Shown here: positions 7,801-64,000 of the stretch, in pieces
Numbering within the stretch: the stretch's first letter is position 1
Layout: the number at the start of each line of letters is the position of its first letter
Assembly: GCA_973895155.1 (NCBI GenBank)
Contig: OZ316892.1
Location: forward strand, 6,376,847 to 6,440,846
DNA: 64,000 nt
Direction of reading: 5' to 3'
DNA from: Marsupella aquatica
Taxonomy: Eukaryota > Plantae > Marchantiophyta
The notes under the pieces: generated by a model
The model's database searches: none
The model's input: only the letters and a program-made list of their open reading frames with translations
Told to the model about the DNA's origin: nothing
Translations under genes and position numbers: made by a program

Positions 7801-8326
7801 ACAAAGCTGTGGTCAACACCAGAGGACTCCCACTGACCCACACCCAACTGCTCTTCATCACTTCAAGAAGCTGAGCGGCGAGCCAAACGTTCCCTGGGCT
7901 CAAATCCCCCCCGGCTACCTGCCTCAACAGTGATAGACAGAGCGTATCCACATCCGAGGCCGTGAGGCTTATAAGCTGCTTCAAGAGCCATAGAATCTGC
8001 AAACGAGTCTGCTCCATCAGCTTGGGATACGAATCATTGACAAGCCGGAGGAGAATGCTCACAAAGGAAGCGTATCCATCAGTGGTCACAGCTGTAAGGT
8101 GGGTCACGTGAGAAGGAGCAGCAGATGGGCTTAACAGGATGCCACAAAGGAGAGCCTGAGTGAGGTGGGCATGCTGGGCACCTGCAAGGGTGGAGTGGTG
8201 GTAGGGAGGAGTGAGCTGAGAGTGAAGACTGATGTACGAACGCAGAAGAGTGTCTTCGAGTTCATTGGTCGACTCGAAAGGCCCCCTGTGCATGAATTGA
8301 AGAGAGGCCATATTCAAGGTTGCCAT
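4886..8326 (-). CDS. INTS3: Integrator complex subunit 3 (SOSS-A homolog), ~1146 aa, essentially one large exon
   Basis: Long ORF with hallmark INTS3 motifs: IGRDLVRLLQ, QRRYQTWF, DLIRFICCVHHPTNQILQSNIVPRWAIVGWLL, ANAKLALFYDWLFF, NIMNIEPAILLM. The TGA overlaps a canonical donor (AG|GTGAGT at 4889), so the true end may be spliced to an acceptor at 4812, giving ...HDRA* with the stop at 4805-4807. Confidence 0.93.
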   Translation of the reverse strand: MATLNMASLQFMHRGPFESTNELEDTLLRSYISLHSQLTPPYHHSTLAGAQHAHLTQALLCGILLSPSAAPSHVTHLTAVTTDGYASFVSILLRLVNDSYPKLMEQTRLQILWLLKQLISLTASDVDTLCLSLLRQVAGGDLSPGNVWLAAQLLEVMKSSWVWVSGSPLVLTTALYTYLRLLPDHAMGKTAILTELKEKETAFCVQILRERFQDCLDIGRDLVRLLQDVTFIPEFEAIWRDLLNNPTCFKAPAFADIANLYVLRTPSRYLASRITPDMESQIRFMLTHVNMGSQRRYQTWFAQRFLSSPESETLVCDLIRFICCVHHPTNQILQSNIVPRWAIVGWLLKCCKSNHVEANAKLALFYDWLFFMRSDNIMNIEPAILLMVYSIPKYVDMTHSLLEFLFLLIEHYDPVRKDLIQKGVTSSIDILVGKGVVRSLEPLSASNLVASWLREKLFFYFSAYCKSESVDGLKQVKPELSHQENSYDNVHQQISGSMAKLGQSQREQGSGIDGVTGQDQNSDMEDTKSGDLEPMSRKRRRLGATEAHLSDIQLNFERLAEALASSQEAGIVSLEKLLWSFLLAAEHIFGEKISKDTRGGDLSGDLVLPSGLSMLVNSDSAPLSVSKIAAQITEVLKKCGYELFGPLQKQPSDRPEGDETLSLTCAVLRLYVANCRNHPILLHLLLSWHKEGLAVGARLLCYVSRLTEEIEPTATRSLRSRGLASSATPDSDALVSVLTKLEEDSCSTRMNGDGDEMAELAESSGESIREQRKNGLTGVGAFKMHGSSNPSPLSRKASRSRDLNVVGDMHTRLRTAVADAFKSYEELLKLVKRLPVMSQQLDGNSASQGNINTTETSAKTEGADLDGDAVEAELVSDLETCLLWNTNRFLRVLPSVYRYLPSLSTGREDILLLLVSSLDPQELCNFEFRLLLGEFAILGNHLEGLPRLIKNSLKWEFMEQQIFWRLLVAELQAAPPAVVMQVLKICSTVLSPQVNSEALSGLLLLLRHQMPTSQLVNAVLLLPPAFGRLAAVVLASWVSTHHSQLLSCLQTLNSGSPKERQKKGGEDGEDITNNGARRMSSSAISVLLTSLDDTELVRNNEEEKTARITRATEIKRALLKLTGGYGIVGMGNLQAPSETTIEYHDR

Positions 8327-44592: not shown

Positions 44593-46726
44593 CCCTGAGA
44601 GCTCGTCGGTCGCCCGACGCCTCCTTGTCGCTTATAGGCCGAGCCTTTCACGCTTGTAGTGTACCAGCCACTCCATTGATCCGGGTCAGCGCGTGTCAGT
44701 GGCCGCCTCCAAGTTTGTTATACGGACCCGAGAGGGAGGGGGGAAAGGCGCCCATTACATGCTTGTAGCCCGGGCGTGCGAACGGCGACCTGCCGCCAGC
44801 CCAAACATGAACGTCCCTTATTGACTAATGATTTCCTACTCATAATGGCTACCTAAATTATGATCTAAGATACCCCTACCGCGCGTGCTAAGCGTGGTTA
44901 GGCCAAATCACTTATTAGCCACTATACCGGCGGCGTCACAATGTACAATGTCATCAAACTTCTATCAAACATCAACTACAAACGAAGGGATGGAACCCAT
45001 ATCTTGCGGGATGTAAAGGGTCACAGGCCAAAGATTGGAACTTCCAATTCACAAGCATCCACACGAGAGTCAAACCATTATCAAATGGAGAATGAGTCAA
45101 GTACAACTCATATGGCTAGGGCAGGAAGTCTTTCAAACTCAATTATGGATGCTTATCAAATTTCACATAGAGCGTATTTGGACAAGCTTTGGGCAAAAGC
45201 TTTCTACACAAGTGGTATTGCATTCAATGTTTCACAGAATCCTTATTTTTGAGAAGCAGTACATGAGACTTCAAAAGGTATTGTAAATGGGTATTCTCTT
45301 CCCATTATGCGGAATTTGCAAGTGAAGTTGTTGGAGGAAGCCAAGGAAGATCTTACAAAAGACATCACCAAAACCATGAAGGAAACAAAACCTTTTGGTT
45401 ATTCTTTTTCATCAGATGGATGGGAAAACAGCCGTAGAGAACCTTTGATGAATGTGAGTTGTTATCTTCCAAAGGAGATTTTTTCATAGATAGTTGGAAT
45501 GTTGCGCAAGCAGATAGAAAAGATGGAAAATATCTTGGAAAAATATGGCTACAATATATTGATGAAATTGGGCCAGAACACATTCTACAAATAGTCACTG
45601 ATGGTGCATCTGAAAATCGTGTAGCAGGTTGTGACATAGTGATGAAAAAATATCCACATGTCACTTGGAGTTGGTGTGCTGCCCACGTGTTCAATTTGTT
45701 GCTAGAAGACGTGTGCGGTCATAAGAATGTAGTGCTAGATGAGAGCAGACAAAATCCATTCAAAAACATTTTTAAACACTTGAGATGGATAGTAAAAGCA
45801 GTTTCATCGTCCCAAAAGCTCTCCGCAATATTTGTGAGAAAATCTGCTTACAAAAAAGTACTAAATCCAAATGCAACAAGATTTGCAACAATTTTTCTCA
45901 TGGCGCAAAGAGCATTGGAGCTTAGAGGAGCTCTGCAACAAATAGTCATTGATGATAAATGGGAGTCTTATCATGATAGTCTTATCGTCAAATAGGCACA
46001 TGACGAGGGCCAAGGCAGAAGAATTCAAAGCGTGGATACAATAAGATAAATTTTGGGCTGATGTGAAGGCTACAGTGAACTTTTTTCTTCCGTTGGTGAA
46101 GATGCTTCACGAATTTGATGGTGCTTCACCCCAATCAGCCTGGTTGTATTGGAGTTTGAAAAGAAGGATTAGTGATTTGAAGGCAAACATGGAGGAATGT
46201 CCATTGGTAACAAAGTTCTTGAAGCCAAGGATATTAAAAGTGTACATGGATCGAAGAGCATCTCTTACCACTGATTTTATGCTAGTTGCAACATATATCA
46301 ATCCTTAACTATTTTTTGATGAAGACCTAGATGTTGCTAGAGGTGGAGAATTGTGTCAAGGTTTCAATGAGTACATTGCCCGATATGCAAAACACAAGGT
46401 GAAAGAAGGGATCAACCATGATTGTGAGGTTAATGCACTCATTTATGCCATACAATTGCAAGCAATTGATGCACAAAAGAAATTACCAAACACAACAGTA
46501 ACCATGAGAGGAGCCCAATCAAGTATAGGTGAAGTAAGTCCAGGAGAGTGGTGACATTCATACGGTGCTGATTACCCAGATTTAAGAGTTATGGCTAGAA
46601 AAATTTGTCACCAAAAAATGTGTGCGTCAGCGTGTGAAAGAAACTGGAGTTCGTATGGATTTATTCATTCTACAAGTTGCAATAGATTGACAAATGATCG
46701 AGCAAAGGATTTAGTATTTGGTCAAT

Positions 46727-47661
46727 TGCAAGATTGAGGGGGGCAAAAGGACGCAAAAAGAATTAGCTCAAAAATGAGAGAAAAATTACTCAAAGATCAT
46801 CAAGATTTAGTTGAACACCACTTTCATAAAGGTTGGACACACTTCCAAAATTATTGTGCACACTTCCAGTAAGATTGGGACTTCCTAAAAGCCTGGACAC
46901 ACTTCCAAATACTTGGCATGCAAGATCTCATCATCCAATCTCAACAAACTAATCCTAGCCATTTAGTGTAACACCTTTTCCTTTTGGTGGTGTCACACCA
47001 TTCTGAGTAGTGTAGTAGTATATTGTGCTATTAGAGTATGTACGTTTGGTATGAGTGCTATTGGAGCCGATAAGGTTCCGTCAGGTTTGTGTGAGAGGGT
47101 ACTTATCACTTGTGAGGCATTGAAAGGTCATCTTTCAATGTTGAGCCTTGGAGAGAGAGGAGCTTGAGTGGCTATGGTGGTTGTGAGCTCCGCTTGTGTA
47201 ACGTGGATTCCTTGAGTAGTGCAAGGTGCGTTGGCTTGACATACGTGTGTGATCGGATTGGTGCGGGATCGATGGGGTATTGTTGACCGGGATCGTTGTG
47301 CCGATTGTATTGAGATTACATTGAAAGATCATGAGCTTCAAACTCTGTTGTGCGGACAGAAGCTCAGTCTGAGTTTGTCGTTGACGATGACGGTTCGTGG
47401 TAGCTCGAATTAATTGGATTTGTGTTTGACGCGGATTCATGTTTCTTGAATCGTTGGTTCTATTGTTTGAGTACTCTGTTGCTATTCGATCTGGTTTTGG
47501 CCAAGCTTGAACGTTGTTGGATCTGGATCTGGTCTAGATCTGGATCTGGATTGAGTCGGAGTCTAGATCTGGAAAGAGATGGCCGAAGGTTGCTACTTGT
47601 ATCGCACTGCTATTTTATGGACAGATCTGTTGGAATTTTGAGTGCTCGCAGCGTTTTATTG
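46727..47661 (+). mobile_element. Probable LTR-retrotransposon fragment (LTR ~46727-47320 plus leader) truncating the hAT transposase
   Basis: hAT homology stops right after DLVF, where TGCAAG begins. ...GATTACA at 47320 is followed by a degenerate PBS-like ..ATCATGAGC. Internal short repeats TGGACACACTTCCAAA. Boundaries are tentative. Confidence 0.35.
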
Positions 47662-47844
47662 TCAAGGGACGCTCACGAAATGTCCCAGAACCGTGCGCGA
47701 CAAGTTTGTAGGGGTTGAGAGCCATCGACATTGCCATTTTTGTGAAGGAAATCGTTGCTTTCGAGTGGCAAATGTTGTCATTTCTGAGCCCGACGACTTT
47801 TGTTTTGTACACACACACAACTATGCGCGCATAAGGTGACGCGT

Positions 47845-48011
47845 GAGGTCACCCATCCCGAAAGTGCTCCAACCGCGAGCGCGAAGTCACCCATCGCGAG
47901 CGCAAGCAGGAAAGAGGTCGAGGTCACCCATCCCGGGGCTATTCCGGGTCGTGAGCGCGAGGGGAGGCACAAGGTCGAGCGCGAGGAGGTCACCCATCCC
48001 GGGGCTATTCC
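47845..48011 (+). repeat. Array of four GARGTCACCCATCSCG motifs
   Basis: Copies at 47845, 47883, 47920 and 47986. The last two share a perfect 26-mer GAGGTCACCCATCCCGGGGCTATTCC. Confidence 0.9.
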
Positions 48012-48042
48012 CAACCGCAAGCGCTTAAACCACAGCTGCCAG

Positions 48043-48165
48043 TATAAAAGGGCCCTTGGTCTGCCCGCCTAGTCATTCTTTGCTGCCCGGATGCACAGTG
48101 ATCCCGGGTGAACAGCTCCTTCGGCCCGGCAACTTTTCCGCTTTCCTCTCCAACGCCAGGTGAGT
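48043..48165 (+). promoter_or_regulatory. TATA/Inr promoter and first non-coding exon, probably of the KolX-like gene
   Basis: TATAAAAG at 48043, Inr-like TCATTC 30 bp downstream (48073) and a strong donor CAG|GTGAGT at 48160. Confidence 0.5.
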
Positions 48166-50201
48166 GAAACGCATGCATGACTTTGCAAGTGACAAAGCCT
48201 ATGTGTGTGACTGCCCCATCTCTCCTTTGCGCACTGACATAGCTGTGCGTCGCTGTCCAGCCTTTCCACTCGTTTTGGATCAGTCAAAGTTACTTTTCGG
48301 ATTGGTATTGTTGACGACATTGGCTTTGGTGTTTACTTTGCATTGGAACTCGTCCCACTTGGTGTCATCGCTGGGGATTGTTATCAAGTACATGTGAATT
48401 CAATAGACTACTTTTGGTTCCTTCAACGGCTGCTGAATTGCAGTTTTCACCGACAGCAATCAGCATTCCTTCACTTCCACAAGTTTGTACTTCGCAATTT
48501 TTACTCGATTTGAACCAGACCCGATTTGAAGCAGAAGCATCATCTCACCTCTGTTTTACATTCACCTTCTTGTCATAGAGTAGCTTACTTCGGCCAGAAT
48601 TTCATTGGCAAATTTCTGTGGAGCTGTTGTGATCGTTTCTAATCTGGGTGAGTGATCATGGTTTGTGTCGCCTCCAATCTGTAGTCTGCCTCGATCATCC
48701 TTTGAGTCCTCAATTGAGTCAGGGTAGGAGGCAGTAGTCTAAGATACCTGATCCCCGGACATTTCCAGCTTTTTTGTCTGTCTTTTTTTCTCTCGATCGA
48801 TGTTGGGCAGAATCACGCTCACTTGGAGTATATTGTTGAACGGACCTCAGTCTTTCAGTAGTCCTCTTTTGTACAGCACAAGCGATAAGCGATAAGCGAT
48901 AAGGCACAACGACAAGCGATAAGGGATAAGCGCAATAAGGTGGAAATCCGGTGTTGGGCTTGTGCAGCTTCGCCCCGTTTAGGCCGATCACTATCACTAT
49001 CTCACCCTAGCTAATTACTAATTGGAATGGCAACTCGGAGAAGGAATTATTGTAGCAACTTTATCATACACATTGAAACAGCGAAAGACACAAAGACGAT
49101 GACATCGCGATATAGAAGGACATTTCAATTTGCTGGTGACATCAGCCCTATTGGCAGTGCTAGCTTGCTACCTGACGGATCAATTCTTCACGACCTCTAC
49201 CTCCACCGTTCCACTACTCCCTTCTCCTTTGTCGCTCTGCTGTTGCTGCTAAAGTTCTCCATCATCGACCAGCTAGCTACGTCCTTATCCAATGCTTTCC
49301 ATCGGAACATACTTACACCGGACATTTCATTGTTGCGTGGTGTGCATATGCAACTAGCTAGTAAGGTCAATTGTGCTTGTAATTGTGATGTGCAAATATT
49401 AATTTCTGCAACTCTGTAGCTCTCTAAAAGCGAAAACAACTTCGACGTCACTCACTAATTCCTTTGCCTCAATAATGTCGAGCCTTCGTAAGAAAGTCCA
49501 AGGTGTCATCCAGTATCGACACAACTCCTTTACCATGTTTTCAGTACCCGGTCACGACACAACTCCTTTACCATGTAATTAGTATGGGAGTCACCATGCA
49601 TGTCATCAGTCCCGTAGTCAAATTGACCATGTAGTCAGTATGCTTGTCAAGATCATGTTGGGAAGCCGAGCCCTTTTTGTTGGATATCATTCTTACATTC
49701 ATCATACTGATTTCTCCAAAGGTACTTTCTTTCAAGTACTGAGAGACGTGAAGCTAGAGAAAAGAGGAGGAAGGACAACCGGCCTTATCTGCCACGAATT
49801 CAGGTTCTTCACCCAAGTCACTCCATGGTACCCCGTGAAGTGGTCTCCATTTATCATAATGGAGTTTGAGTTCCACTATAGAGAGTCATTGTGACCGATT
49901 CCATGTTCAAATATTTTATTTTTCAAAGTACTTTGCTTTTGTCAGACTTCTTTACTTGCAAATGGAAGAAGATGGAACCAGGATCGTTGCTTTGGTCATG
50001 GCTTGCAATCAACATGTCAAAAAAGATTGGCGTTACTGGACAGTTCCTTTTATGAAGCCTTCACAACAATTGTTCATAGTTGGCAACAGACATAAGAGTT
50101 GTGATGTTTTGAGGTAATTGTTTTCACCCTCCATTGTTCTTATGTCATTCCACATCTTGGCTTTGACTAACATCTACCTTTCTTATGGCAGTCCTAGAAG
50201 A

Positions 50202-50600
50202 ATGGCCAACAGGCAGAGAACCAAGGTTAAATTGAGTGAATGCGATGATGGGTCCTACATGTTGCTTTGGCAAGATGCCCAAGCTGAACACGAGGCTCCT
50301 CCCATCCAACGGAGGACAACCTTAGACGAGATCCGATCTGATTTCCCTGAGTTTTGTCGTGTGGTCACAGAATGTCACGATGACCTCAATCCAGTTGTAC
50401 CTTTGGACCAACTTTTGATTTGTGCTGCATATAGTTATGTGGATAGTGTGAAGAAGCGGAAATGTTACCAAGTGTACACGCACTTGGCTTGGGTATGTGG
50501 GTATGCAGAGCGAACAAAGTTCCCAGATGCAGTGGAAGCAGTCATCAAAGCAACATGGCATGACCCACATGAGGAATTTGTAGGATTTCGCCCATATTAG
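50202..50600 (+). CDS. KolX-like / P2X7 C-terminal (ballast) domain-like protein, 132 aa
   Basis: The C-terminus KRKCYQVYTHLAWVCGYAERTKFPDAVEAVIKATWHDPHEEFVGFRPY fits the R..AY....W..G...R...P.CV...IR..FP.P.G.Y.GF pattern of KolX/P2RX7_C. It is preceded by an intron (GTAATT 50114, branch point TGACTAAC, CAG 50191). The ORF is intact. Confidence 0.7.
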   Translation: MANRQRTKVKLSECDDGSYMLLWQDAQAEHEAPPIQRRTTLDEIRSDFPEFCRVVTECHDDLNPVVPLDQLLICAAYSYVDSVKKRKCYQVYTHLAWVCGYAERTKFPDAVEAVIKATWHDPHEEFVGFRPY

Positions 50601-51515
50601 TCGTTAATCTTGTAATGTCCTTTGCATACTTATAATCTAAATAAAATCCTTTTTTTGGGATTGAACTCTCGCTGGTCGGCAGCACAAGGGGTTCAAATCC
50701 CCTTGGGAGTAATTTGTTCATACATGTGATAAGAAAATTCACCTCTTCTGGTCCATAGATCTAATTCTCAACTATGGATTGTATCTATGTTGTGAGTATC
50801 CTTTTAGAAATGTTGAAAGTCTATAAACTGTTGTCATCCATTAGTTTGGCAGTACCCCCCCTTTTACCAAAATAAAAGTCTTCTTCAAAAAAATGTTGGC
50901 TTTCCAAACTAGGATAATAAGCATAAGTAGTTTGTGTTATTATAATATAATATTGTGTTTTATTTCTCCATAGAATATTTGTGTCACATTATCAAACAAT
51001 TGTGTATACATATGGGTTTATGGTTTACCAAATTTCAGGTTCACAAATTAATGCTTTATACATCGTACCCTAGTTATATTGAACACAATATTTAGGTCCA
51101 ACATGATTAGAATCAAATAAGTCCCCAATTGTACAAAACATAAAAAAACATTTTTGAGAATGAGACAAAGCTAGTTGCACCAATGTATTACAACTTGTAC
51201 ATGACACAAGAAAACAAATCAATAATAAATAATGTATATAATGTTGTACAATCATGCTAAACACTAAAAATACCAAGTGCCTCTATAATTATATGGAAGT
51301 AAAATGCTCATAGGTCGTAGCTTGATATCTTCAAAGAAACAACTCTCTGCAATAATAACGTGATGCAATCAATTCATATAACAATTAGACTAATTATGAA
51401 CATAAATTAAAAATAGGGTATTTGGTCATATCCATCCTCAATGCAATGTGTGTGAACAAAAACAAATGTGATTTTGAGGGCCAAAAATAATTACCTAATG
51501 TATGTTGGTTTAGGT

Positions 51516-54500
51516 CTAAGGTAGTCCATAGATACGTGCACTCGTCTGCTCCTTCCAACTTGTGGTACGATCCACTAATACTCGTGAATGAGAGGGTCTA
51601 TCGCGAACAACTGTGTTCACTGCACGATGATCATGAACCTTCCAAACATGTCTCCTAATATTTTCATTCCAATCCATAGCAGTACAACATAAGCGCGTGT
51701 CATGAGTAGCTGGAAAATGGATACGCTTTATGGCATACTTGCCCATTACAGAATGAAATGTTTTGGACATGAAGTTCTCACGGGCCATGGTATAAAATCG
51801 CATTTTTTCTGGCCTTATGTACTTGGCCATAAAAGCTTTCATGGCCTTATGAGTTTCCCCACCTGCATAATTTCCAACAACAGAAATGGTTATTTAAATC
51901 CTAATTACTATATCATCCAACATCCAAAATAACACTTTGTCTAAAAATTCATGAATACTCATGGACAGGTGAAGTGTATAAGTTACCTCTCTCATAGTAC
52001 AAGTCCAGCTGTAATGCATTAGGTTCTCCAAGATGCTGACAAGGGCGATCTGATAGTGTCATGCACCTTTCATGATCACCAGCCCAATGATCTGCGCAAT
52101 TTCCTAATTAACTCAAAAGCCAAGGATTCACTATCTCCACCCCTGCATTGCAAAGTAGTGAGAAATTAATATAAACAAAGTACATATTGAATGTACCAAA
52201 TATTTATGAAGCTAGCATTACAAACAATATGCAAGACTTTAGTATTGGCATACCTATTTTTACATGTTCGGGAACACACATAGAACCAGGTCTTAAATTT
52301 GTTTGCCAAATTGTGCTCTGTTAACTCTGGAAACTTCAGACCACGCGTAGCAATATGTACAAGGTCCTCCTCAGGCAACCCAAGCAAATCAGCAACTCGA
52401 TGAACTAACTCTTCCTTCCTCAGGTTAGAGTAGCCTCTAATACCCCGATCCTTCAACCAGTCTTTCAATTTTTTTATTTGTAACGGCTTGCAAATTAGAA
52501 CGAGATGTCACAGTGTCTATGTCAATGGTAAGGGTAAATGTGACACTTGACAACTTGTCCACAAATTTCCTTACCAGATTTTTTGCCTTGTGCCATAAAT
52601 CCTTCTGGTTTGTAAATCCCATGTCCTTAATAATTCTATCAATGATACCTTTATCATCATGGATAACCTCTGTAATGACCACTCCTGCGTTCGTAAGAGT
52701 ATCTAGTACCCTTCTTGCTCCTATCTCCTCCATGTACCAAGAATTATTCTCTTCCCTTCTGCTCACAGTGGTCATCTCAAGAACCCTATTATCGTAACTA
52801 TCAATGATAGAGGAAGTACCATGATACCCACTCCGAGAAGAATCCCAACGACAATCTAGATACACAACTAGTCCAGGATCTGCAAGAAAACCAAGAATAT
52901 ATTATGCGCGGAAAAAGTATTCTCAAAATTCATTCAATCATAGTATAATGCATACATGTCTTTCATGTTTGATCAAAACCTTTGTAACGACGATAAAAAA
53001 TACAATTTTGCGGTACAAAACTTAAAAAACTGAACTAAATTATACATATATTAACTTAAATTAGTAGTTTAATTTGAAGACCTTCATGTACTGCACGTTG
53101 CTGCTCAAGTCGGGTTTTTACATCCTCCCACACCTTGCTTTTGTTTACCTCCCATTGCTGCTTTACAGCATCTATCCATCCTACTTGAGGTCGTCGTCTT
53201 CCACTCTGAAAATCATGCCAATGGGTTGCAGAGGGAACATGCAAACCTAAATGCGATGTCAATGCGGCTAGAGCTGTAAATGTAAGACCAGCACATAGAG
53301 TGGAATGATACAGCATAGGAGTAATCAATGGTGAATTCCTCCCAGACTCATTCTCACCAGTGACAAACGTCCACCCATGTCCATGTTGCCCACAACTGAT
53401 CCTAATAGACCAAACTTGTTGCAACTCACCAATACGCTCCACTGTAGGAGTCAATGCACATCCAGGTATATGACACGTAGGAAGTAGTCTCTGAACAAAA
53501 GTATGAACTAGTTGTCGTTCAAAAAATGCTACTGTAGCCGGTCGACGAGGTGGAGACCTACGTGTAACGGGTGGATCAAAGGTAGGTGGTTCCGATTGCG
53601 AGTTTGGGACTAAGGATGGTTGTGAGGCAGATCGTTCCGGTGATTGGGAATCCAAGTTTACCACCTCCTAATTCAATACAAATATTTATATTATTAAAAG
53701 GAATACAAATAAAACACAAAGTGTCACAGGTGTAAAAATAGAGTGTGGTTGGAAAAACTTAATGGGTATGGATTGTAAATTGTTGCACCTCCTCCACAAC
53801 CTCCTCGTGTATAGGAGCTCCTAAAGCATGAAGAACCGTTGTGTCTTCATCTCGAAACATGGCTTCATCCTCTGCATCTGATGGGTATTGCTCAACAATA
53901 TGCTCCTGCAATTCCTCTTGCTCTTCCGTCAGTGCATCACTTGTTACAGACTGTTGACTCTGTAAAAAATAACCAAAGATGTAACAACATTATGGACTGG
54001 TTATGGTTTTGGAAAATAGGACTTGCAAAAGTCCACATCAACAACCCTAAAGAAAAAATTATCCCAAAACAACACAAGCAAAACAAAGAAAAAATAATGT
54101 ACCACATAGAAATAAATTTCTTTTTACGTTGAATAAATACAGAAATAATGTAGAAGACATAACAGAATTATTTACAAACATACATCACGTAAATCCGTAA
54201 GCTGGCCCTGACTGCTGCTAGGATCCATAAAACTCGATGAAGCTCCAATGTCGGTCGCTGATGCAAGTTCATCTTGTAGCATTCTAGCAACTTGCGCTAC
54301 TTGCCATCTCCTCAAATGCTCAACCCTATCTCGCACTTCATGAAACAACCACTCAATGACAGTTGAGTGTGTAGTATGTTCATCACCAAGTAAGACTCTC
54401 AATTCCTCCCAGTCATTCCACAAGTGAAGAGGGACTCGGATTGCAGGCCTTGCATCCGGTCTCCGAACCCTTTTATAGTGTATGTGATCACTAGGGTATT

Positions 54501-54582
54501 TTTTTCTCGGAGGGCCACCACCTTGAGGAGGGCGCTTTCGCTGGTGTGAGGGACGATGACGTGGATCATCCTCTGTACTCAT
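51516..54582 (-). pseudogene. Kolobok-type DDE transposase, ~760 aa after repairing two +1 frameshifts; exons 54582-54184, 53959-53789, 53667-53082 (or 53097), 52879-52254, 52142-51987, 51862-51516
   Basis: Motifs in order: IRVPLHLWNDWEELR..HSTVIEWLF; CHIPGC..CGQHGHGW; VVYLDCRWDSSRSGYHG (D1); SWYMEEIG; EVIHDDK (D2); KDLWHKAKN; LKDWLKDRGIRGYSNLRKEELV (HeH/SAP-like); HWAGDHERC; MSKTFHSVMGKYAIKRIHF (E position = K); RLCCTAMDWNENIRR. Introns are GT-AG and phase-consistent. Confidence 0.8.
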
Positions 54583-55220
54583 GGTGAAAAAATATAGTCT
54601 CTACCGCATTTGACTCAAATCATCAGCTGGAAAAAAGTTGGATGTCAAACACTTAGAAGTACTAGCAAAATATCATTTAAAAACAGATAACAAACAACAA
54701 TGACCACATAGTGGTGCATTAATAATGTACAAGGTGGCTTTATGCCTCTTTATGCATGGTTCACCTCATGGCCAATGTACTCTTCTTTTCATTTTATGGG
54801 CTCCTCACAATTCTTTGTCTAAGCTCTCCTTTCATACACCGAGCACACATTCTTTGTAAACATACAGATTGTCAAAAGTAGTGGCTACTCCCTTCCTTCT
54901 AATGAACTAGTGTGCACATATTTTTTGGAAAAACACATATTGTAGAGAGCTTCCGCTACTCCCCTACCTCCTTCTTACGAGTACATATACAAGGACATAT
55001 ATAGTGAAACATGTACAGTAAAAAGCAAGTGACAAGCACAGACTCTTGCACCTCCGTTTGACTCCCGCGCCTCTGTTCGACTCTCACACCGTACCGCCTC
55101 TACTTCGCACCTCCTCACCTCGCCTCTCTTTCCTTCGGGGCTGCGACGACGAGCCCCTCCTCTACCTTGCCTTCATCTTCATGCACGCCACAATTTGCAA
55201 AAGCAACAGCGCTTGTTCTA

Positions 55221-55727
55221 CGGTGCCGACAAAGTTTGATCCTAGGCCCTCCCGGCTGCGAGTGAGTGACATAACCAATAGAGCCGTCCAGGCTGTTCGA
55301 TTGTTAGTAAACATGAAATAATATTTGAACAGGATCTAATTCATAAGTCCTTCATTAGGAGCGGGTAGCCTCGGCACTCCGCTCGCCATGTGTCCAGGTA
55401 ATATTCGTCGGCCCTAACTGCCCTCCCCTACCTCGTCACTCTTTCCTTCCAGGCGCTGCAACAATGCACCCCGCCCCCCATATTTAGAGTTCATCAAAAG
55501 GCCAAGCGTGACCTCCGGCGTCGACGAGGTTTGATCCCTGGACCTCCTGGGTGCAAGTGAGAGTGTGTTACCAGCAGAGCCGTCCAGGCTGTTCGAGTGT
55601 GAATGCAAACAAAAGCGTATATGAACATAAGGGAGATCCTCAGTAGGCCTGCGTTGGCTTAGGATTGCCTCGGCCCTCTGTCCGCCATGTGTGGCTGCTA
55701 TGGCTCATCATCCCCAACCTGCCCTCC
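55221..55727. repeat. Diverged direct repeat with ~296-bp period, upstream of the transposase
   Basis: Exact 21-mer AGAGCCGTCCAGGCTGTTCGA at 55280 and 55576, with colinear GTTTGATCC, GCCTCGGC, CGCCATGTGT and CTGCCCTCC blocks. Confidence 0.85.
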
Positions 55728-55780
55728 GTCGGGCTAATCTAAGAGCCCATCTTCTTTCCTGCCATGTGTAGGGTCAAAAG

Positions 55781-55842
55781 GGGAGAGGTTTGAACACACG
55801 ACCTCCTCATTGGCAAGGAACAACACTACCAATGGAACAGCT
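55781..55842 (-). other. Degenerate tRNA-like / SINE-head sequence
   Basis: The minus strand reads AGCTGTTCCATTGGTAGTG (A-box-like) ... GAGGTCGTGTGTTCAAACCTC (B-box/T-arm-like). No intact cloverleaf. Confidence 0.35.
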
Positions 55843-55894
55843 CAACGTCATGCCTGAAGTGTCGGCACCAACTGGTAATAAACAAGTTTCAAAA

Positions 55895-56625
55895 TGTAGT
55901 GACCCGGTAAGCCAGCCTGGCAGTCGCGACTGTCTAGCCGGGCTGCCCGAGGGCAATTCTGCCCGTGTGCCTTGCTTCTCCGTACATTACTCGCGTATCA
56001 CTACTTTGTTCTGTGTATAATGAGGGGCTACGGGTTACCCATAGCCTCTTATACTGGCAGCTGTGGTTTAACTGGCAAGTTCTCATCCCACCTTGTGTAC
56101 ACACAAGTTTTCACAACTTGTTGTTTAGATTCAAGCGACAGGGGGCTTTATACACTTTCCGGTTTGCTTAGAGCCTTGTTTCGGGCCAAATCAGAGGCTC
56201 TTTAGAGGTTTTTGATAGTTCTAAGTTCATCTAAATACACAGATTGAACCAATTGTGCATGGTTTCTCATCTATAACATTGGGACATCATGAAGCCTATT
56301 ATGAAGGCCTTTCATTGAATATTATGAATATTTGTTTGATCAATGTATGATCACTCTTGGTGTGGAGAGTTAGTGTTTGACTATTCTTGTTGATTGGATC
56401 CTCTCCACACTTGTTTCCTGTTTATGCGCCATGTTGGTTCGGTGTGGGCGCTTGATTCCATAGGAGTGATCCAGGTTTGCAACTGGACATTCTAGTGTGC
56501 TGTGTATTTCTCTCCTGGTGATGTTGGAGTGATGCCCAACACACCATGGTGAGTGCTTGTGGTGCTGACAGGGATAGATTGCCCTTAGGGTTAGCACATA
56601 GATTAGGTTAGGGTTGGTCACCACG
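55895..56625 (+). mobile_element. Ty3/gypsy 5' LTR (~730 bp)
   Basis: Starts TGTAGTGACC and ends GGTCACCACG (imperfect inverted repeat; the terminal CA appears mutated). It is immediately followed by gag. Confidence 0.65.
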
Positions 56626-58506
56626 GATTCTTCTGGTGCTGCTGGATTACCCGATGGACGACGGACCGGTTTCACTCGGAGTGGGGCACAGTTTCGGCCA
56701 TCGGCATTGGTAGCAATCAGCAGTGTAGCTTCAGATAGTGATTCTGATGAGGACTCAGTGACCAATTCTCCTCATCATCAGGTGGTTGCACCTTTGTTGT
56801 GGGATATGGACGAGATGTACGGGGCTACAAAGGGCCCACGACGATACTCTGGTGCAATTGGCACAATTGATCTGGATGACTTCATCCAGGAGTTTGATAC
56901 GTGGTGCGATATGCAGACATTGCGTAACGTCACGTTGTTTACCCTTTTCATGGCATGGAAGGGATTATTCCAACATTTGGAGGGGCCACCCATGGATGAC
57001 TACCATGAATTTTGGAAGGCTCATTTGGTTGAGATTGAGGCATGGAGGCAGCATTGGTCGCCTAATTACGTGTCCATCACCTATGGCACTAGTGCGGCTG
57101 CCCAACCCATTGCCATAGCTGTTGCTTCTTCTAGCAGCACTAGCCAGAGTGGCACACCATCCACCAGCAGCACTCCAGTAGCATCCACCGCTACTCCTGC
57201 CGGTGTGATTGTGACAAGAACTGGAGTTGCGCCAGTATTTAACCCTGTGGTGGAATTCTTTGAGGTACTGAAGCAGAACTATCAGGGTGTGAGAACTGAT
57301 AAGTTGAAGGGTCTTCAGGAGTTCCAACGCAAGATTGGAGAGAGCCTACGTGAGGCATACACACGTATGCGCAGATTGATCACTGTCACCTAGGGAGTGA
57401 CAGAGGCTCAGGCAGTCCAGTTTTGGTATGCAATTCTGGACAAAGAATTGCGACGTAGAGTAAGAGATGTCACTTTGCTTAGGGATGCAGATCCCACATT
57501 AGCAGTTGTTTTTACACTTTCTGAGCGCATTGAGCTCAATATGGTGAATGAGAAGGTGGTGACTTCCGGATTTGCCAAGGAAGCACCAAAGGCTGCATCC
57601 ACATCCACACTACAACCTACTGCACAAGAGTCTACCAGCCAGAGACATGTGCCCTCTTATGCTGGACAACAGTCAGGATGTTGGACCTGTGGTGGGGATC
57701 ATGCACAGAGAGATTGTCCAGATCATAGAGGATCAGGGGGAGCATCAGCGCCTGATCAACGACAGTGTGATCATTGTGGAGCTCCTGGACACACCAAGGA
57801 TAGGTGTTTCTCACTCCATCCTGAGTTACGGAGAGGAGAATCCCGTACACATGATCAGGGAAGAGGAGGAGGAGGTAGAGGTGGTGGACGTGGTCGTGGC
57901 ATGCCACATGCAGGGAGACAGGGAGGTGACGCTGCCCCTACTGTAACCATAGATCCAAAGGATGCTAAGATTGCTCAATTGGAGCAACAACTAGCTGCCA
58001 TGGCTAGTTCCCAGGTGAGACCTACTTCTGGTGATGGGGCATCAACATCCTATGGACCTTCCACATCCCATGGTCCTTCCACATCTTATGGAGCTGATGG
58101 AGACCTTGTCACCATGGGACTCATGTGTGGCACTGCACATATTGATGCATCAACAGCTTTGACACGTGGGGCAGCCAAAGCTCTTGAGCCCCGAGGAGCA
58201 GTAGTGGAGTTAGATCCACAAAGGGGGGATGCACGTCGGTAGACAAAGCTTCCTCAGTCTTTTACATTGTCAGAGATAGTTCAGACTGCCTCTATGAACC
58301 CGGTTCGGACAAACCCTGATGTGGGTAAGTTGGCAGAATCACGTAGTGATGTAGCAGGGATGACAGGTACCTTGCTGGGGGCGGCTACTGCCATGGTACG
58401 TGCCCCATTATTTTCAGTGATAGACATGCTGAACTTGGGAGTTGGTCCTGCAGAAGTGTTCAGATTGGCAGCTACACTCTGTGAGGACACTCCAGTGGTT
58501 GCTTCC
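56626..58506 (+). pseudogene. Ty3/gypsy gag (capsid + two zinc knuckles) with in-frame stops, cut by the Copia insertion
   Basis: PRRYSG..DLDDFIQEFDTWC, FQRKIGESLREAYTRMRRL, CWTCGGDHAQRDC, CDHCGAPGHTKDRC and an RGG-rich tail. Single TAG stops at 57391 and 58240 lie in one continuous frame. Confidence 0.8.
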
Positions 58507-58834
58507 TGTTGAACTAAGACGTCATTCGCAACGACCATACAACCATGACTCATTCCATGCACACGTAACACAATCTCTACGTGGTTCACCTCCTCTCCAA
58601 GGCTACGTCCACACGAACACTCAAGCTTTACTTCAAGAGTAGACGAACACACATGCTCTCCCCCTTTCTCAAGTTGCTCCGTTACAATGAGTAAGCACCA
58701 CACACCAGCGGCTTACACTAGCCCTGGTATATACAAGGTCACACACGACTAAACTAACCTCAACTAAGACCCTAACTGTGGTTAGCCTAAGTGCCATAAC
58801 CTTTGAGTCACAAGACTAAGAGCAATCCTTAACA
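58507..58834 (-). mobile_element. Ty1/copia 3' LTR (328 bp) with polypurine tract
   Basis: TGTTG...TAACA termini. Minus-strand PPT AAGGGGGAGTT is directly adjacent (58835-58845). Left flank (expected TSD) is CTTCC. Confidence 0.85.
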
Positions 58835-59038
58835 AACTCCCCCTTGACTCTAGTCTTGGGGACTGCAATTTCTGCTATCCATATGAGATCCTCAACGGGA
58901 AATTCTAGACAATCACCTAAAACCATAGGTGTCCCCCTAAAAACCATTTAAGGTTAACTAAGAGTTAACTAGAATTAAGCCGTAGCCATAACAGGATTGA
59001 GTAACTCATATACAAAAATCACATCTTGTTAAGTTACT

Positions 59039-62000
59039 CTACTTGTGCTGCAAATGCAAAACCTGCAAAGTAGCACGGTGTCTTGAGTAACTCTCCAAAG
59101 GAATCACTTTGGTAAAAGCATCAGCCGGGTTGAGTTTTCCATCAATCTTGACTAGCTCAAACATTTTATCAGACACTGCTTGCCTAATAAAATGGTACCT
59201 GATGTCAATGTGCTTCACCCTGCTATCCATCACTTGGTTAATAGCTAGGTGAAGCGCACTCTGGCTGTCACAATGAAGAGCCATTTTTCCATGCTCCAAT
59301 CCCATCTCAGTGACCAGCTTATCCAACCAAATTGCTTCCTTTGCTGCTTCTGCTGCTGCAACATATTCTGCTTCTGTAGTAGACTGAGATACACACTTTT
59401 GCAAGGTAGATCTCCAACTTATGCATCCTCCTCCAAGAGTAAACACATACCCAGTCGTTGACCTCCTTGTTTCCAGACAGCCTCCGTAGTCAGAATCTAC
59501 ATAGCCAACCAAAGATTTGGTTTTGTTTGATCTACTATCAAACAACAGACCATAGTCTATTGTGCCCTTAAGATACCTGAGAATCCATTTCACAGCCTCC
59601 CAATGTACCTTCCCTGGATTTGACATGAATCTACTCACTTTGCCCATTGCTAGGGCTAGATCAGGCCTGGTACATGTCATCAAATACATTAGACTGCCCA
59701 CTACCTTCTCATAAGGAACCTTAGTCATCAAGCCTCTCTCCACTGGATCCGTGGGGCAGAAAGCCGATGATAACTTGAAATGTGGAGCCAAATGAATACT
59801 TACTGGCTTACAATTTTCCATGTTGAATCTTGCAAGTACCTTTTTAGCATACTTGCCTTGATTCAGCCACAATTGTCCAGTTTCAAAGTTCCTCGTAATC
59901 TCCATACCTAAGATCCTCTTGGCTTTCCCAAGATCCTTCATTCGGAATTCAAAACTCAATTTTGCTTTGAGTTTGTCAACCTCAGTTTGATCCTTAGCCG
60001 CAATCAACATGTCATCCACATAGAGCACTAGAATGAGCAAACCAAACACACTATTCTTGACTGATTTCGTATACACACAAGGGTCATACACCATCCTAGT
60101 GAATCCTTGTGCAAGCATGAAATCATCAAACCGCTTGTTCCACTGTCGAGGAGCTTGCTTCAATCCATACAAGGACTTAAGTAACCTGCAAACTAAACTC
60201 TCTTGACCCTTCTTCACAAAGCCCAGTGGTTGCCTCATGAAAATTTGTTCCTCCAAGGTGTCATAGAGAAAAGCAGTAACAACATCCATTTGATCTAACA
60301 CCAGATCAAAAAACATAACAAGTTGACACAAAATTCTTATCGTGGAATACTTGGCAACTGGAGAGAAGACCTCATTGTAATCCACTCCCTTCTCCTGAGT
60401 GAATCCTTTGGCAACAAGCCTTGCCTTGTATATCTTGTCTCCTCCATTTGAGAGTTGTCCTTCAGCTTGTAAATCCACTTGCTATCCACCACTTGTTGAT
60501 CACTTGGCAGTTGCACCAGCTCCCATGTTTTGTTATCACATAAAGATTGCAACTCCCTCTGCATTGCTGCATTCCATTCATCTTTCTCGTCTGAAATGCT
60601 TGCCTCATGATATGAAGACGGTTCTCCTTCTTCCAAGATCAGTGCTCTGTCATCATCATCCGGTGCAATGTCAGCATCATCTAACCTTGATGAATCTGTC
60701 CATTGTCCATACCTTGTAGGAGCTCGAGTAGTTCACCTTGATTTTCTAGCTAATGATTCTGGTTGATCTTGTTCCGTTGGTTGATTTTGAGGTATTCCAA
60801 CAACAACCTGCTCTTCTTGTTCCATCATCGGAACCAGCTCCATTATCGGAGCACCTTCTTCAACTATGTCATAAAAACCCTCATGACCAATCTTCCCCTC
60901 AACATGGTCCAGGATAGGAGATTTACCTTTGTCAGTACGGGAAGTCTGTGCATTCTCCCCCTCCTTTGATGATCTGGATTCATTAAAGGATACATCTCTA
61001 CTGACAAGCAATGTACAAGCTGCTGGATCCCATAGCCTGTAACCTTTCACACCTGGTTGATAACCAAGAAAAAGACACTTCTTGGAAGTAGAATCTAGTT
61101 TAGATCGATTTTGCTTAGGTGTGAGAGCATATGCATCACTTCCAAAGACTCTCAAAACTTGATAGTCTGCGTGCCGTCCATACCTCATTTCAAACGGCAT
61201 CTTGAAATTGATTGCACTTGAAGGAGAAAGATTTACCAAATAAGTTGCCGTATTTACAACTTCAGCCCAAAATTCATGCGGTAAACCTGATTGGCTCAAC
61301 ATACTCCTCGATGGCTCCAATAGTGTTCGGTTTAGCCGCTCACAAACACCATTTTGTTGAGGAGTATAAACTGTTGTGAGATGACGAGTAATCCCTTGCT
61401 CTGCACAGTACAGTTCAAATTCACTTGAACTGTACTCCCCGCCATTATCTGATCGTAGATATCTCACCTTGGATCCAGTTTGATTCTCAATTTGGGCTTT
61501 CCACTTCTTAAAAGTGTCAAAAACTTCAGACTTTGCGTGTAGAAATGTGATCCACACATACCGTGAGTAATCATCAATAAACGTGACATAGTACAATTTT
61601 CCAAAAAATGAGGGAGTTGGGGCTGGACCCCACACATCACTATGTACATACTCAAGTATAGCTTTGGTATTGTGAGTTCCAACACCAAAGGTTCTCCTGT
61701 GCTGCTTCCCAAGCACACAGTGTTCACAAAAATCTAACTTAGTAGATTCTAAATTAGAAAGAAGTCCTTTCCTACGAAGTACCGCCAAACCTTTTTCACT
61801 CATGTGTCCCAATCTATAGTGCCACAACTGAGTCATCTCGCCTTGAGATCTAGTTACATTGGTTTCTTCACGAATCACGTTGCCCTCCAACAAGTATAGA
61901 TTCCTGTGCCGCTTACCCTTCATGACAACCTTGCTTCCGGTTGACACTTGAAGAATACCATCAGCAGAATTCCACCAACATCCATTTGCTTCCAGCATTC

Positions 62001-62265
62001 CAAGAGAAATCAAGTTCTTTTTCATGTCAGGTATGTGTCTGACATTACTCACTGTTCGCACAGCTCCATCAAACATCCGAATTTTCACAGATCCAATTCC
62101 AACAATTTGACAAGGATGATCATTCCCCATCAACACGGAACCGGTTGATATTGAGTAAGAACTAAAAAACTCTTTCATACAACAAATATGATAGGTACAG
62201 GCACAATCTAGAATCCATTCATCACCGTTGTTACTGGATGAAATGCAAAGGGCAACATCTTGACT
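59039..62265 (-). pseudogene. Ty1/copia pol (protease, GAG-pre-integrase, integrase, RT, RNase H) with one internal stop (60733) and one frameshift (~60460)
   Basis: WILDCACTYH, LWHYRLGHMS..CEHCVLGK, VHSDVWGP, LRSDNGGEY, TPQQNGVCERLNRTL, YKARLVAKGFTQ, QMDVVTAFL, LYGLKQAPRQW, LYVDDMLI, GYVDSD, STTEAEY, KHIDIRYHFIR. Confidence 0.95.
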
Positions 62266-63192
62266 TCACAAGATTTCATCATCAAGCAAGTCAATCATAT
62301 CAATATCAGTGGCTGCGTTCACTGATGGTTGATGAGTCTGCTTGACTCGACAGTCTCTTTTCATGTGGCCGGGCTTGTTACATTTCCAGCATATAATTGG
62401 TTTCCTTTCTAGAGATTTCTCTCTAGATCTGGATCTAGACTTAGACCGAGCCTTCTCCTTGCCTCTGTTCCGTGAGGGGTATGATTGTGAAAATGACATG
62501 TTTTCACTAGTCATCCGCTGTTGAGTCCTCTCGCGGTTCACATTCAACACACTGCTAGATGAAGATGGTGTCTGGGTATGACCCAATTTCTTCTGTGCAT
62601 CATCTGACAGCAAAGAGCTTACCACCTCATCATATGAAATGGTTTTGAGGTCTCTATACAAGAGAACCTGCTTCAAACCTTGATACGATGGGGGTAAGGA
62701 GTTGAGAAGAAGCAATGCCTTATCTTCATCTTCCATTCCCTTGCCAAGATTTGACAAATCTACAGCTAGACTATCAAATTCATCCAAGTGATCTCGAAGC
62801 TTGCCTCCTTCTTTTAGCCTCAAGCTCATCAAGAGAGATTTCTTGTACAACCGATCTGAGGCATCCTCGCGGTAGTACATCTCTCTGAGGGCCTTGAATA
62901 AGGATACGCAATCCTCGTAATCGTCTAGCTTCTTAATGATATGCGGCTTCAGATACAACATAACCGTATTCACAGCGATCACTTGCTCCTGCCTCCATTT
63001 CCTCAACGGGATCTCCTCCTCACTGCTAGACTCCTCCCGAGTCGAAAGCAGATGATCTAGGCCCATAGCACGAAGAATTTCCTTAACCTGTTTCTCCCAT
63101 AGCAAATAATCCGTGCGCCCATCATACTTTTCCACCTCAAACTTGACACCTCCAAACTTGGATGCCATCGTTGTCCTCCCGACGTTCTCCAC
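62266..63192 (-). CDS. Ty1/copia Gag (~300 aa); 5' LTR lies beyond the window
   Basis: FEVEKYDGRTDYLLW, KALLLLNSLPPSY and zinc knuckle CWKCNKPGHMKRDC. It ends in a TGA in frame with pol. Confidence 0.9.
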   Translation of the reverse strand: MENVGRTTMASKFGGVKFEVEKYDGRTDYLLWEKQVKEILRAMGLDHLLSTREESSSEEEIPLRKWRQEQVIAVNTVMLYLKPHIIKKLDDYEDCVSLFKALREMYYREDASDRLYKKSLLMSLRLKEGGKLRDHLDEFDSLAVDLSNLGKGMEDEDKALLLLNSLPPSYQGLKQVLLYRDLKTISYDEVVSSLLSDDAQKKLGHTQTPSSSSSVLNVNRERTQQRMTSENMSFSQSYPSRNRGKEKARSKSRSRSREKSLERKPIICWKCNKPGHMKRDCRVKQTHQPSVNAATDIDMIDLLDDEIL

Positions 63193-64000
63193 ATGCTATT
63201 TCTCTGTTGCTCCCTATATCCTTTTGTCGCTTTTTCCTTCCTTCCGTCCCGTTGACTCAAATCCAAATCATGAAAAAATGTCATTTTTCACAACTTTCCA
63301 AAAAACTTGAAACTTGTCACTGCCACGTAGCCCACCAGCCTAGCAAGCCAATGCTGAAATCCAAAATCGAAACCGAGTTCCAACGAAAAACTTTTTCACG
63401 TTTTGATCGGGGTGGGTAAAACTCAAAAAATTCTCCCCCGTTTTGACCACCTCGGGGAATAAAAAAAATTCCAAGTACCACCCGTCGTTGAAAATGAAAA
63501 TCGAGTGGTGCACCGCGTTGCTAGCTTCAGTGGCTACGTCCTCGCCAAAAAAAATCCGAAAAAAGTTACCGTTCGGACCTTGGAATCTTCGACTAAAGGC
63601 CAAAAAACAGCTCTCTGTTTTTTTGGAATATTCCCCGGACTGTGCGGCAGGTCGCACAGGGGGCTGTTCCCCCTGTCTGAGCGGTTAAATTGTCGGGTCA
63701 CCGGGCCCGGGATGCCGCTTAGCCAATGGGAGAAAGAGGAGAAAAAGGAAAAAATTGCCCTAAAAAGGGGTTGAATCCCTTTTCAAAAAATACAGTGTAT
63801 TAAGGGCCAGGGATACGCTGGTACGCGGACGGGATACTACGCATATACATATGTGGGTGGGAGGTGGGGTACTCTGCCTTAATGGCTCATAGGGCAGCGT
63901 GCCCTCCTGGCCTGGCTCCCCCTCTTTAATTGCCTCACAAGGCCCTATGCAAGGGCACAAGGCCCTATGGTGGAGGGGAGGCGTGCAGAAAAGAGGAGAG

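Follow-up and report, generated by a model that had tools for sequence, protein, structure and literature searches.

Does a liverwort genome hold a transposon of the Kolobok type, a superfamily whose catalogued hosts are animals, fungi, a chlorophyte, rhodophytes and protists (PMC9587614)? The question is raised by a locus of Marsupella aquatica within a stretch of 64,000 nucleotides (contig OZ316892.1, positions 6,376,847 to 6,440,846, assembly GCA_973895155.1), referred to here as the window. An initial annotation, made from the letters alone, had placed there a spliced transposase and a convergent small gene related to KolX and to the cytoplasmic ballast domain of the P2X7 receptor. We conclude, with a probability of about 0.85, that the locus is a broken two-gene transposon with terminal inverted repeats (TIRs), inserted at TTAA in a host repeat and likely belonging to a plant lineage that uses the Kolobok cut-and-paste route. 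The claim of a TTAA-targeting two-gene element of Kolobok type in a land-plant lineage is likely to be correct and agrees with the empty site, the TIRs, the convergent genes and the liverwort relatives described below.

The element spans 8039 bp (48029..56067, no strand assigned), as defined by its TIR pair and by an empty-site joint. A repeat search over the whole window found an inverted pair at 48025-48051 and 56045-56071, 27 nt long with 26 matching positions, the outer four bases of which read TTAA on both sides. The TIRs themselves (48029..48051 on the + strand, starting with 5'-AC, and 56045..56067 on the - strand, with GT-3' as the terminus on the + strand) are 23 bp long with 22 matching bases, and such repeats are expected for the Kolobok superfamily. 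They are bordered by the TTAA target duplications at 48025..48028 and 56068..56071 (no strand assigned). Contigs aligned to the window supplied the copy-level evidence; they belong to four public runs, from two studies and under two organism labels. One of the runs is possibly the source of the window itself, and summed contig depths are not copy numbers. In all four runs, contigs join 48024 to 56068 (3, 3, 3 and 5 contigs), skipping 8043 nt, i.e., 8039 plus 4; the four letters fit either side, and the joint holds a single TTAA. This empty site represents sister copies of the flanking repeat without the element. Because it is directly seen, the TIR pair is beyond chance. The target duplication is exactly 4 bp at both ends and at the empty site, as in the definition of the Kolobok superfamily.

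The right end provided a second line of evidence. At least 10, 10, 8 and 2 contigs of the four runs track the window to 56071, through the right TIR and the TTAA, and then diverge. Among the matches listed, their continuations after 56071 showed a consensus agreement of 0.43-0.63, and this low mutual agreement means that there are many different flanks; 4 and 5 further contigs among these matches depart at 56072. The diverging contigs are independent insertions of the family at TTAA. The TTAA target proposed in the initial annotation, as opposed to the 8-11-bp duplication of MULE, hAT or P elements, was thus borne out by both the empty site and the many flanks. Among the same matches, a further 6, 4, 8 and 2 contigs have only the last ~45 bp of the element (56027-56071) in common with it and point to families that end alike, either sister or non-autonomous ones. 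The limits given in the initial annotation, 47662 and 55894, had to be replaced by 48029 and 56067. The former left limit lies in the interrupted host repeat, which begins with TG at 47660, and the stretch 55894-56067, assigned to a gypsy long terminal repeat (LTR), is the element's own right subterminal DNA. An LTR start at 55894 was rejected, since the depth in run X1 stays at ~40-56 until ~56015 and exceeds 1000 only past the end of the element.

The transposase gene lies on the minus strand, where the motifs YLDCRWDS, IHDD, DLWH, HWAGDHERC, TFHS, KYAIKR and AMDWNEN, pointed out earlier, were found in order. In the exon model, exon 1 contains the predicted start (54184..54582; tblastn to Riccia relatives), and exon 2 (53789..53959), an acidic linker without a match to relatives and the least certain of the six, was placed together with intron 2 by frame logic alone, i.e., consistency of frame and splice sites. 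Exon 3 (53082..53667) carries a C..C..C..H motif common to the relatives; exon 4 (52254..52879) carries the first D (52854-52856), the second D (52656-52658, assigned by eye), the DxxH motif (52590-52601) and a SAP insert; exon 5 (51987..52142) carries an H..H..C..C motif; and exon 6 (51516..51862) has a K codon at the position of the catalytic E (51762-51764). Five GT-AG introns of 111-224 nt separate the exons, which are in phase with one another. The AT-rich introns of the initial annotation were confirmed, with 26-30% GC vs 41-48% in the exons. Four of the five coincide with divergence of sister contigs (joints 51868-51983, 52164-52246, 52906-53065 and 54071-54209).

The six exons amount to 2285 nt, 5 nt over an open frame of 759 codons, and read literally they stop at codon 533; the open spliced protein of ~760 amino acids announced earlier is obtained only if two frame breaks are ignored. 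The first is a run of seven T (T7, 52469-52475) in exon 4, one base of which is missing from sister contigs, and the second consists of four extra nucleotides (52105-52108) in exon 5, also missing from sister contigs. Both were predicted from the relatives and are matched by the indels of the sister contigs. A run X1 contig covering 52338-52744 (5 differences, no gap) also has the T7 run; therefore, this lesion is real and shared, and a homopolymer error of the assembly as its only cause was rejected. Cryptic GT-AG pairs could bypass both breaks to give 711 amino acids, with loss of segments conserved in the relatives. Splicing was also considered as an explanation of either break, by an 88-nt intron (52487-52574) for the first and by a cryptic acceptor at 52091 for the second; both options were rejected, because the relatives keep the segments and the sister contigs show the indels. 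At the second break (52105-52111), TAA is duplicated around one extra T, a pattern that might speculatively be compared to the excision scar of a TAA-targeting element. The catalytic E, which the initial annotation had placed before TFHS, is K in the present copy; of the 79 relatives, 39 contain this motif and 38 of them have E, and K recurs in P0047. The present copy is predicted to be dead and unable to make an active enzyme. Among the best 40 rows, 11 exon variants were classed, 6 silent and 5 residue-changing, a small and biased sample.

A search with a single exon found four proteins of Riccia sorocarpa at 48-49% identity, and a profile of these four gave 79 relatives: 38 from R. sorocarpa, 31 from R. 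fluitans, one each from Calypogeia fissa and Klebsormidium nitens, six from JGI and two from Logan. The profile search scored the best 7995 word-sharing candidates of 252-877 amino acids, and among these no moss, fern or seed-plant match was obtained; as only the best word-sharing candidates were scored, missing matches from these groups, and from animals, are weak evidence. When read through the breaks, the transposase showed 28-44% identity to its relatives in alignments of up to ~740 columns. The window protein and 28 of the 79 relatives were placed in a quick tree (29 rows, plant-type only, no outgroup, long branch), which joined the window protein to the liverwort rows with an SH-aLRT of 100, and the Klebsormidium and JGI/Logan-type rows fell apart from the liverwort group. 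Scans of metagenomes with two transposase alignments and one viral scan confirmed no locus. One Riccia gene model, P0081, fuses the N-terminus of the transposase to a RING-labelled protein, possibly an annotation artefact or a capture.

In an alignment of 11 sequences, the D, HDD and the H of DxxH were invariant. The H..H..C..C pattern after DxxH is present in the window and in the relatives and was matched by eye only to Data S5 of PMC9587614; a zinc-finger motif downstream of C/DxxH is expected for all Koloboks but Kolobok1. Compared by eye with the Kolobok cores of that file, the transposase has the same order of blocks, including the H/C motif after DxxH, and no second zinc finger. The initial annotation had overlooked a SAP-type helix-extended-helix (52394..52496, - strand; weak Ish1, Rho_N and HeH matches in the window) that directly follows the DxxH helix, within the insertion region of the catalytic core. 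Among 16 aligned relatives, SAP was found in 14 and PF20700 in 7 at E up to 0.1 (best E 4.4e-6), and the transposase profile matched the Ku70 SAP domain at E 8.8e-7. No THAP match was found in the window's open reading frames (ORFs) or in the 16 relatives, several of which are without their N-terminus. A model of the relative P0064 (mean confidence, pLDDT, 75) was re-aligned best to Hermes (Z 11.5, root-mean-square deviation [rmsd] 11.9, 271 residues) and ISCth4 (Z 10.0, rmsd 6.3, 245 residues), both ranking above integrase cores; both are C/DxxH-type enzymes with an RNase H core and an insertion.

The partner gene is an intact ORF of 132 amino acids on the + strand (50202..50600), convergent with the transposase as the initial annotation had it, tail-to-tail with 915 bp between the stop codons. 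Its last ~50 residues are KolX-like. A leader intron (48160..50191, + strand) is predicted from donor, branch point and acceptor motifs only. The protein matched two Logan proteins at 50-55%, and a three-sequence profile collected 40 relatives from 1.84 billion proteins searched. Twenty of these were looked up: 2 from C. fissa, 11 from R. sorocarpa (plus one cluster member), 1 from R. fluitans and 6 from JGI, Logan or ENA. For 6 of the 12 R. sorocarpa genes the locus tag is adjacent to one of the 38 transposase genes, where 0.3% per gene would be expected by chance (joint chance ~5e-13 if tags are independent); the single R. fluitans gene has no such neighbour. The six R. sorocarpa pairs bear the tags 002764/5, 003477/8, 008396/7, 012019/20, 013309/10 and 014909/10. 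The adjacency makes the two-gene layout a trait of the lineage, and the expected co-occurrence of the small ORF with the transposase elsewhere was thereby supported. In one ENA record, P0109, the partner tail stands behind an Armadillo repeat, for which an annotation artefact or a capture is again possible.

The likeness of the partner to KolX appears to run through one relative, P0112, and to involve the C-terminal ~50 amino acids only. P0112 passes the P2RX7_C cut-off (45.9 vs 23.5 bits, E 8e-12, model positions 129-192 of 192), and its four matches in PDB are all P2X7, at weak values (E 0.03-0.16). It has a doubled repeat, which inflated its first E-value. A plant-type profile built from 27 sequences, P0112 not among them, assigned 42.6 bits (E 5.9e-6 at library size) to the second of the two repeats; none of 2000 shuffles exceeded 6.1 bits against this profile, and a pairwise comparison for the same link gave E 7e-11 (single comparison). 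In addition, the pattern R..Y...LG...R..LP..V..AI...W....G.F.GF was seen by eye in cysteine-poor KolX of piggyBac elements (Data S6 of PMC9587614). The proposed KolX/P2X7-ballast likeness therefore stood for the C-terminal ~50 amino acids via P0112, but not as homology to the full ballast: no cysteine column reaches 75% among 27 aligned partner sequences, and the seven-cysteine zinc cluster of the ballast is missing. Partner profiles gave only chance matches in PDB. The AlphaFold model of the partner had a pLDDT of 55, below 50 in the C-terminal half, and its best fold match (Z 5.5) was unrelated.

Several results weigh against taking the two genes for a Kolobok pair. With regard to the partner, no window ORF matched P2RX7_C directly when single ORFs were compared with Pfam, and only P0112 among the 40 relatives did so; the best single P0112 repeat reached E 0.87 with the three-sequence profile, a 36-sequence profile found no P2X7 chain in PDB at E up to 10, the ESM Atlas gave only unnamed or helix-turn-helix (HTH) clusters at 0.91 or less, and the Riccia pairing is known at the level of locus tags. 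A protein other than KolX, namely an unrelated small helical accessory protein with a tail resembling KolX by chance, would account for the lack of a direct Pfam, PDB or fold match, for a link that passes through one protein with a doubled repeat, for the absence of a conserved cysteine and for the weak pointer of the Atlas to HTH_36. This alternative, which concerns the partner only, appears unlikely in view of the single-domain match from the profile excluding P0112, the pairwise E-value, the residue pattern in common with piggyBac KolX (by eye) and the fact that the gene travels with the transposase.

With regard to the enzyme, Pfam searches on single window ORFs gave no direct PF20700 match, the structural Z values of the P0064 model come with high rmsd, Foldseek of this model found nothing at E 0.001 or better, and the 79 transposase relatives include no named animal or fungal Kolobok. 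Among the matches listed, one run X1 contig departs at 56067, without the TTAA. Furthermore, both termini read 5'-AC (AC..GT), a feature overlooked in the initial annotation and contrary to the published rule that Kolobok ends are 5'-RR and YY-3' (PMC9587614, PMC6004289). The alignment of other copies continues past the terminal GT as far as 56071, and the best 40 of 55 rows show no variant there. If the element belonged to a lineage of its own within the C/DxxH clade, a sister group of Kolobok with the TTAA target and a KolX-like cargo in common, this would explain these ends, the SAP insert without a THAP match, the missing named matches and the absence of all six lineage motifs (0/6) from the accessible Data S5 alignment (two 'DSSR' matches lie elsewhere in the file). 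KolX-like genes also occur on piggyBacs, and the cargo is therefore not diagnostic. We nevertheless regard such a sister lineage as improbable, since the transposase, compared by eye, resembles Kolobok cores block by block, including the H/C motif between DxxH and E, and these cores are so diverse that a word-based search would miss distant animal members.

MULE, hAT and P elements make target duplications of 7-11 bp. An element of one of these types with coincidental TTAA flanks would agree with the Pfam name of PF20700, 'Mutator-like transposase', and with Hermes, ISCth4 and the P element as nearest solved folds, although no solved Kolobok enzyme was among the structure matches and these may be the nearest folds available. 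This reading is very improbable: the empty site, with its duplication of precisely 4 bp, already goes most of the way to refuting it, and the flanks of many independent insertions begin after TTAA. An origin from contaminating DNA of an animal, fungus or protist, which the initial annotation had also discounted, is hardly credible, as the lack of a single contig spanning the whole stretch is set against a repeat that is high-copy in runs also holding its empty site, relatives on 16-77 Mb contigs of Riccia and Calypogeia, and the grouping of the window protein with liverwort rows.

Returning to the preferred reading, a TTAA transposon on the Kolobok route, we named the element Kolobok-like because its ends are AC..GT and not RR..YY; it would work in the manner of a Kol0 Kolobok, but the failed terminal rule together with the missing KolX cysteines is the reason why it is not filed as a Kolobok member. 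It is best described as a Kolobok-like variant that is so far specific to streptophytes, an extension of the host range and architecture of a known superfamily and not a new mechanism. We consider it somewhat better than an even chance that this is a so far undescribed streptophyte Kolobok-like lineage, ranging from Klebsormidium to liverworts including the present host and marked by AC..GT ends, SAP in the core and a cysteine-less KolX. A literature search, with Repbase, Dfam and most subscription journals outside its range, found provisionally no described land-plant Kolobok. Automatic 'Kolobok' labels without a description exist for spinach and Stellaria (510 pieces with a total of 56,595 bp; PMC6337768, PMC13180808). 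The word 'Kolobok' does not occur in the accessible text of the Riccia genome paper (PMC11735767), and a term search of the accessible supplements of PMC12885004 and PMC13182070 gave no match. The host-range figures of bioRxiv 10.1101/2021.09.26.461848 may bear on novelty. The novelty asserted in the initial annotation therefore stood with respect to described land-plant Koloboks and was narrowed by Kolobok_1_KlNi (Data S5, PMC9587614), which has a different transposase type.

By analogy with the C/DxxH clade, the spliced DDE transposase of an intact copy would bind the ends, excise the element and reinsert it at TTAA through a cut staggered by 4 bases. Within the core, the SAP domain would likely provide a non-sequence-specific grip on flanking or target DNA and may stand in for the undetected THAP. 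The small protein is likely a cysteine-less KolX with a role as partner, cofactor or regulator of the transposase. Transcription of the two genes would likely start from promoters in the GC-rich ends and run inward, and the present copy would move only with an enzyme from another copy. Each TIR contains a TATA-like word, the left one facing inward. The word CTGCCC occurs four times within 900 bp of each element end, and the GC-rich right arm upstream of the transposase contains an 88-bp direct duplication (55218-55304 / 55513-55600, 78% identical). The non-coding left arm (48086-49984) was covered by long, near-identical low-depth contigs in the four runs (0-8 differences over 285-1163 nt), and the coding parts of the element reached ~10x its summed depth; this arm seems peculiar to the present copy or subfamily. 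Rfam found nothing in 47600-56700.

If the proposed relationship holds, plants and animals have in common the pairing of transposase and KolX from which the P2X7 ballast is proposed to derive, and what is conserved and functional in KolX would be the C-terminal ~50 residues and not the zinc cluster. The lineage would also relax the RR..YY rule for the recognition of Koloboks. Annotation of land-plant genomes relies on a short list of TIR superfamilies, and a 2025 screen of 1007 plant genomes that included a Kolobok profile reported, in its accessible part, active clusters from seven superfamilies, not Kolobok (PMC12973397). In Riccia, dozens of relatives bear the gene labels 'hypothetical', 'SAP domain-containing' or just 'Transposase', and a transposon family is thus counted among host genes. 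A minimal cysteine-less KolX with its enzyme in small model plants would open the function of KolX, and hence the original role of the P2X7 ballast tail, to experimental tests.

The element sits inside a high-copy LTR-like repeat. The left piece of this repeat (47660..48024, + strand), outlined by depth and by the empty-site joint, starts with TGTCA and is likely an LTR; the right piece (56072..56570, + strand) ends with TGACA, an end placed by inference, and gag-like frames follow from 56602. These frames (56602-58242, + strand) have two zinc-knuckle motifs, one in-frame stop (57391-57393) and no Pfam family, and on the opposite strand a copia-like gag-pol lies at 58700-63200 (- strand; labels motif-based, with the pol identified in the ORF list). 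Frameshifted fragments of a hAT-type transposase (44900-46700, + strand), adjacent to the interrupted repeat on its left side, matched DUF659 at E 1.7e-19. The region around the element is a nest of several elements. The other window genes recognised by Pfam, besides the DUF659 fragment, were a Syntaxin-5_N protein, a CitMHS transporter and Integrator subunit 3 (Ints3), the last present as one intronless frame of ~1146 codons (4886-8326, - strand). With the copia-like pol, this gene content is of plant type and agrees with a land-plant host, and for both genes of the element the closest named relatives come from liverworts.

Comparison with known systems starts from the algae. The abbreviation KlNi in Kolobok_1_KlNi (Data S5) is here taken to stand for Klebsormidium nitens. 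A single streptophyte alga would then probably be host both to it and to a relative of the present element (KFL_001170010, P0065). Together with Kolobok_1_MicRcc299 and Kolobok-1_CCri, Kolobok_1_KlNi belongs to the catalogued Koloboks from green or red algae (PMC9587614). The cores of KlNi and MicRcc299, examined by eye in the accessible data, have a second zinc finger, of the CCHC type, behind the first D and are without a SAP insert, unlike the element, and Kolobok-1_CCri carries a RecQ helicase, whereas the element has neither RecQ nor the second zinc finger. The P2X7 cytoplasmic ballast (PF20478 P2RX7_C; 6u9v) is linked via P0112 to the last ~50-60 residues of the partner, but its zinc-binding part is not conserved there and no window protein matched it directly.

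Elements of the piggyBac type have CC..GG ends and a DDD enzyme without DxxH. They have TTAA in common with the present element, which, with AC..GT ends and with DxxH and E in its enzyme type, does not conform to piggyBac. Hermes (hAT), ISCth4 (IS256/Mutator type) and the P element also have an RNase H core with a C/DxxH helical insertion. Their target duplications are longer, and they are not known to prefer TTAA or to carry a KolX-like gene. The H/C motif between DxxH and E is absent from MuDR, P and hAT (PMC9587614). Similar cysteine-poor KolX-like tails are found in piggyBac-2_GrCh and piggyBac-14_PI (Data S6, PMC9587614), where the carrier is a piggyBac enzyme, in contrast to the DxxH-type DDE transposase here. 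The Kolobok of Xenopus has AG at the ends of ten copies, where the present element has AC. Kol0 (Kolobok0, type Kolobok-1_XT) is known in the accessible sources from animals only, whereas the hosts here are streptophytes (PMC9587614); its ends are RR..YY and not AC..GT, it usually has an N-terminal THAP (PMC6004289), where the present element has SAP after DxxH and no THAP match, and the partner here is without the 7-cysteine zinc cluster and unlike in its N-terminal ~75 amino acids. The element nevertheless resembles Kol0 in the TTAA duplication and short TIRs, in its type of DDE transposase, where DxxH is followed by an H/C motif (matched by eye), and in carrying a small additional gene with a relationship to the ballast tail of P2X7 (PMC9587614; PMC6004289).

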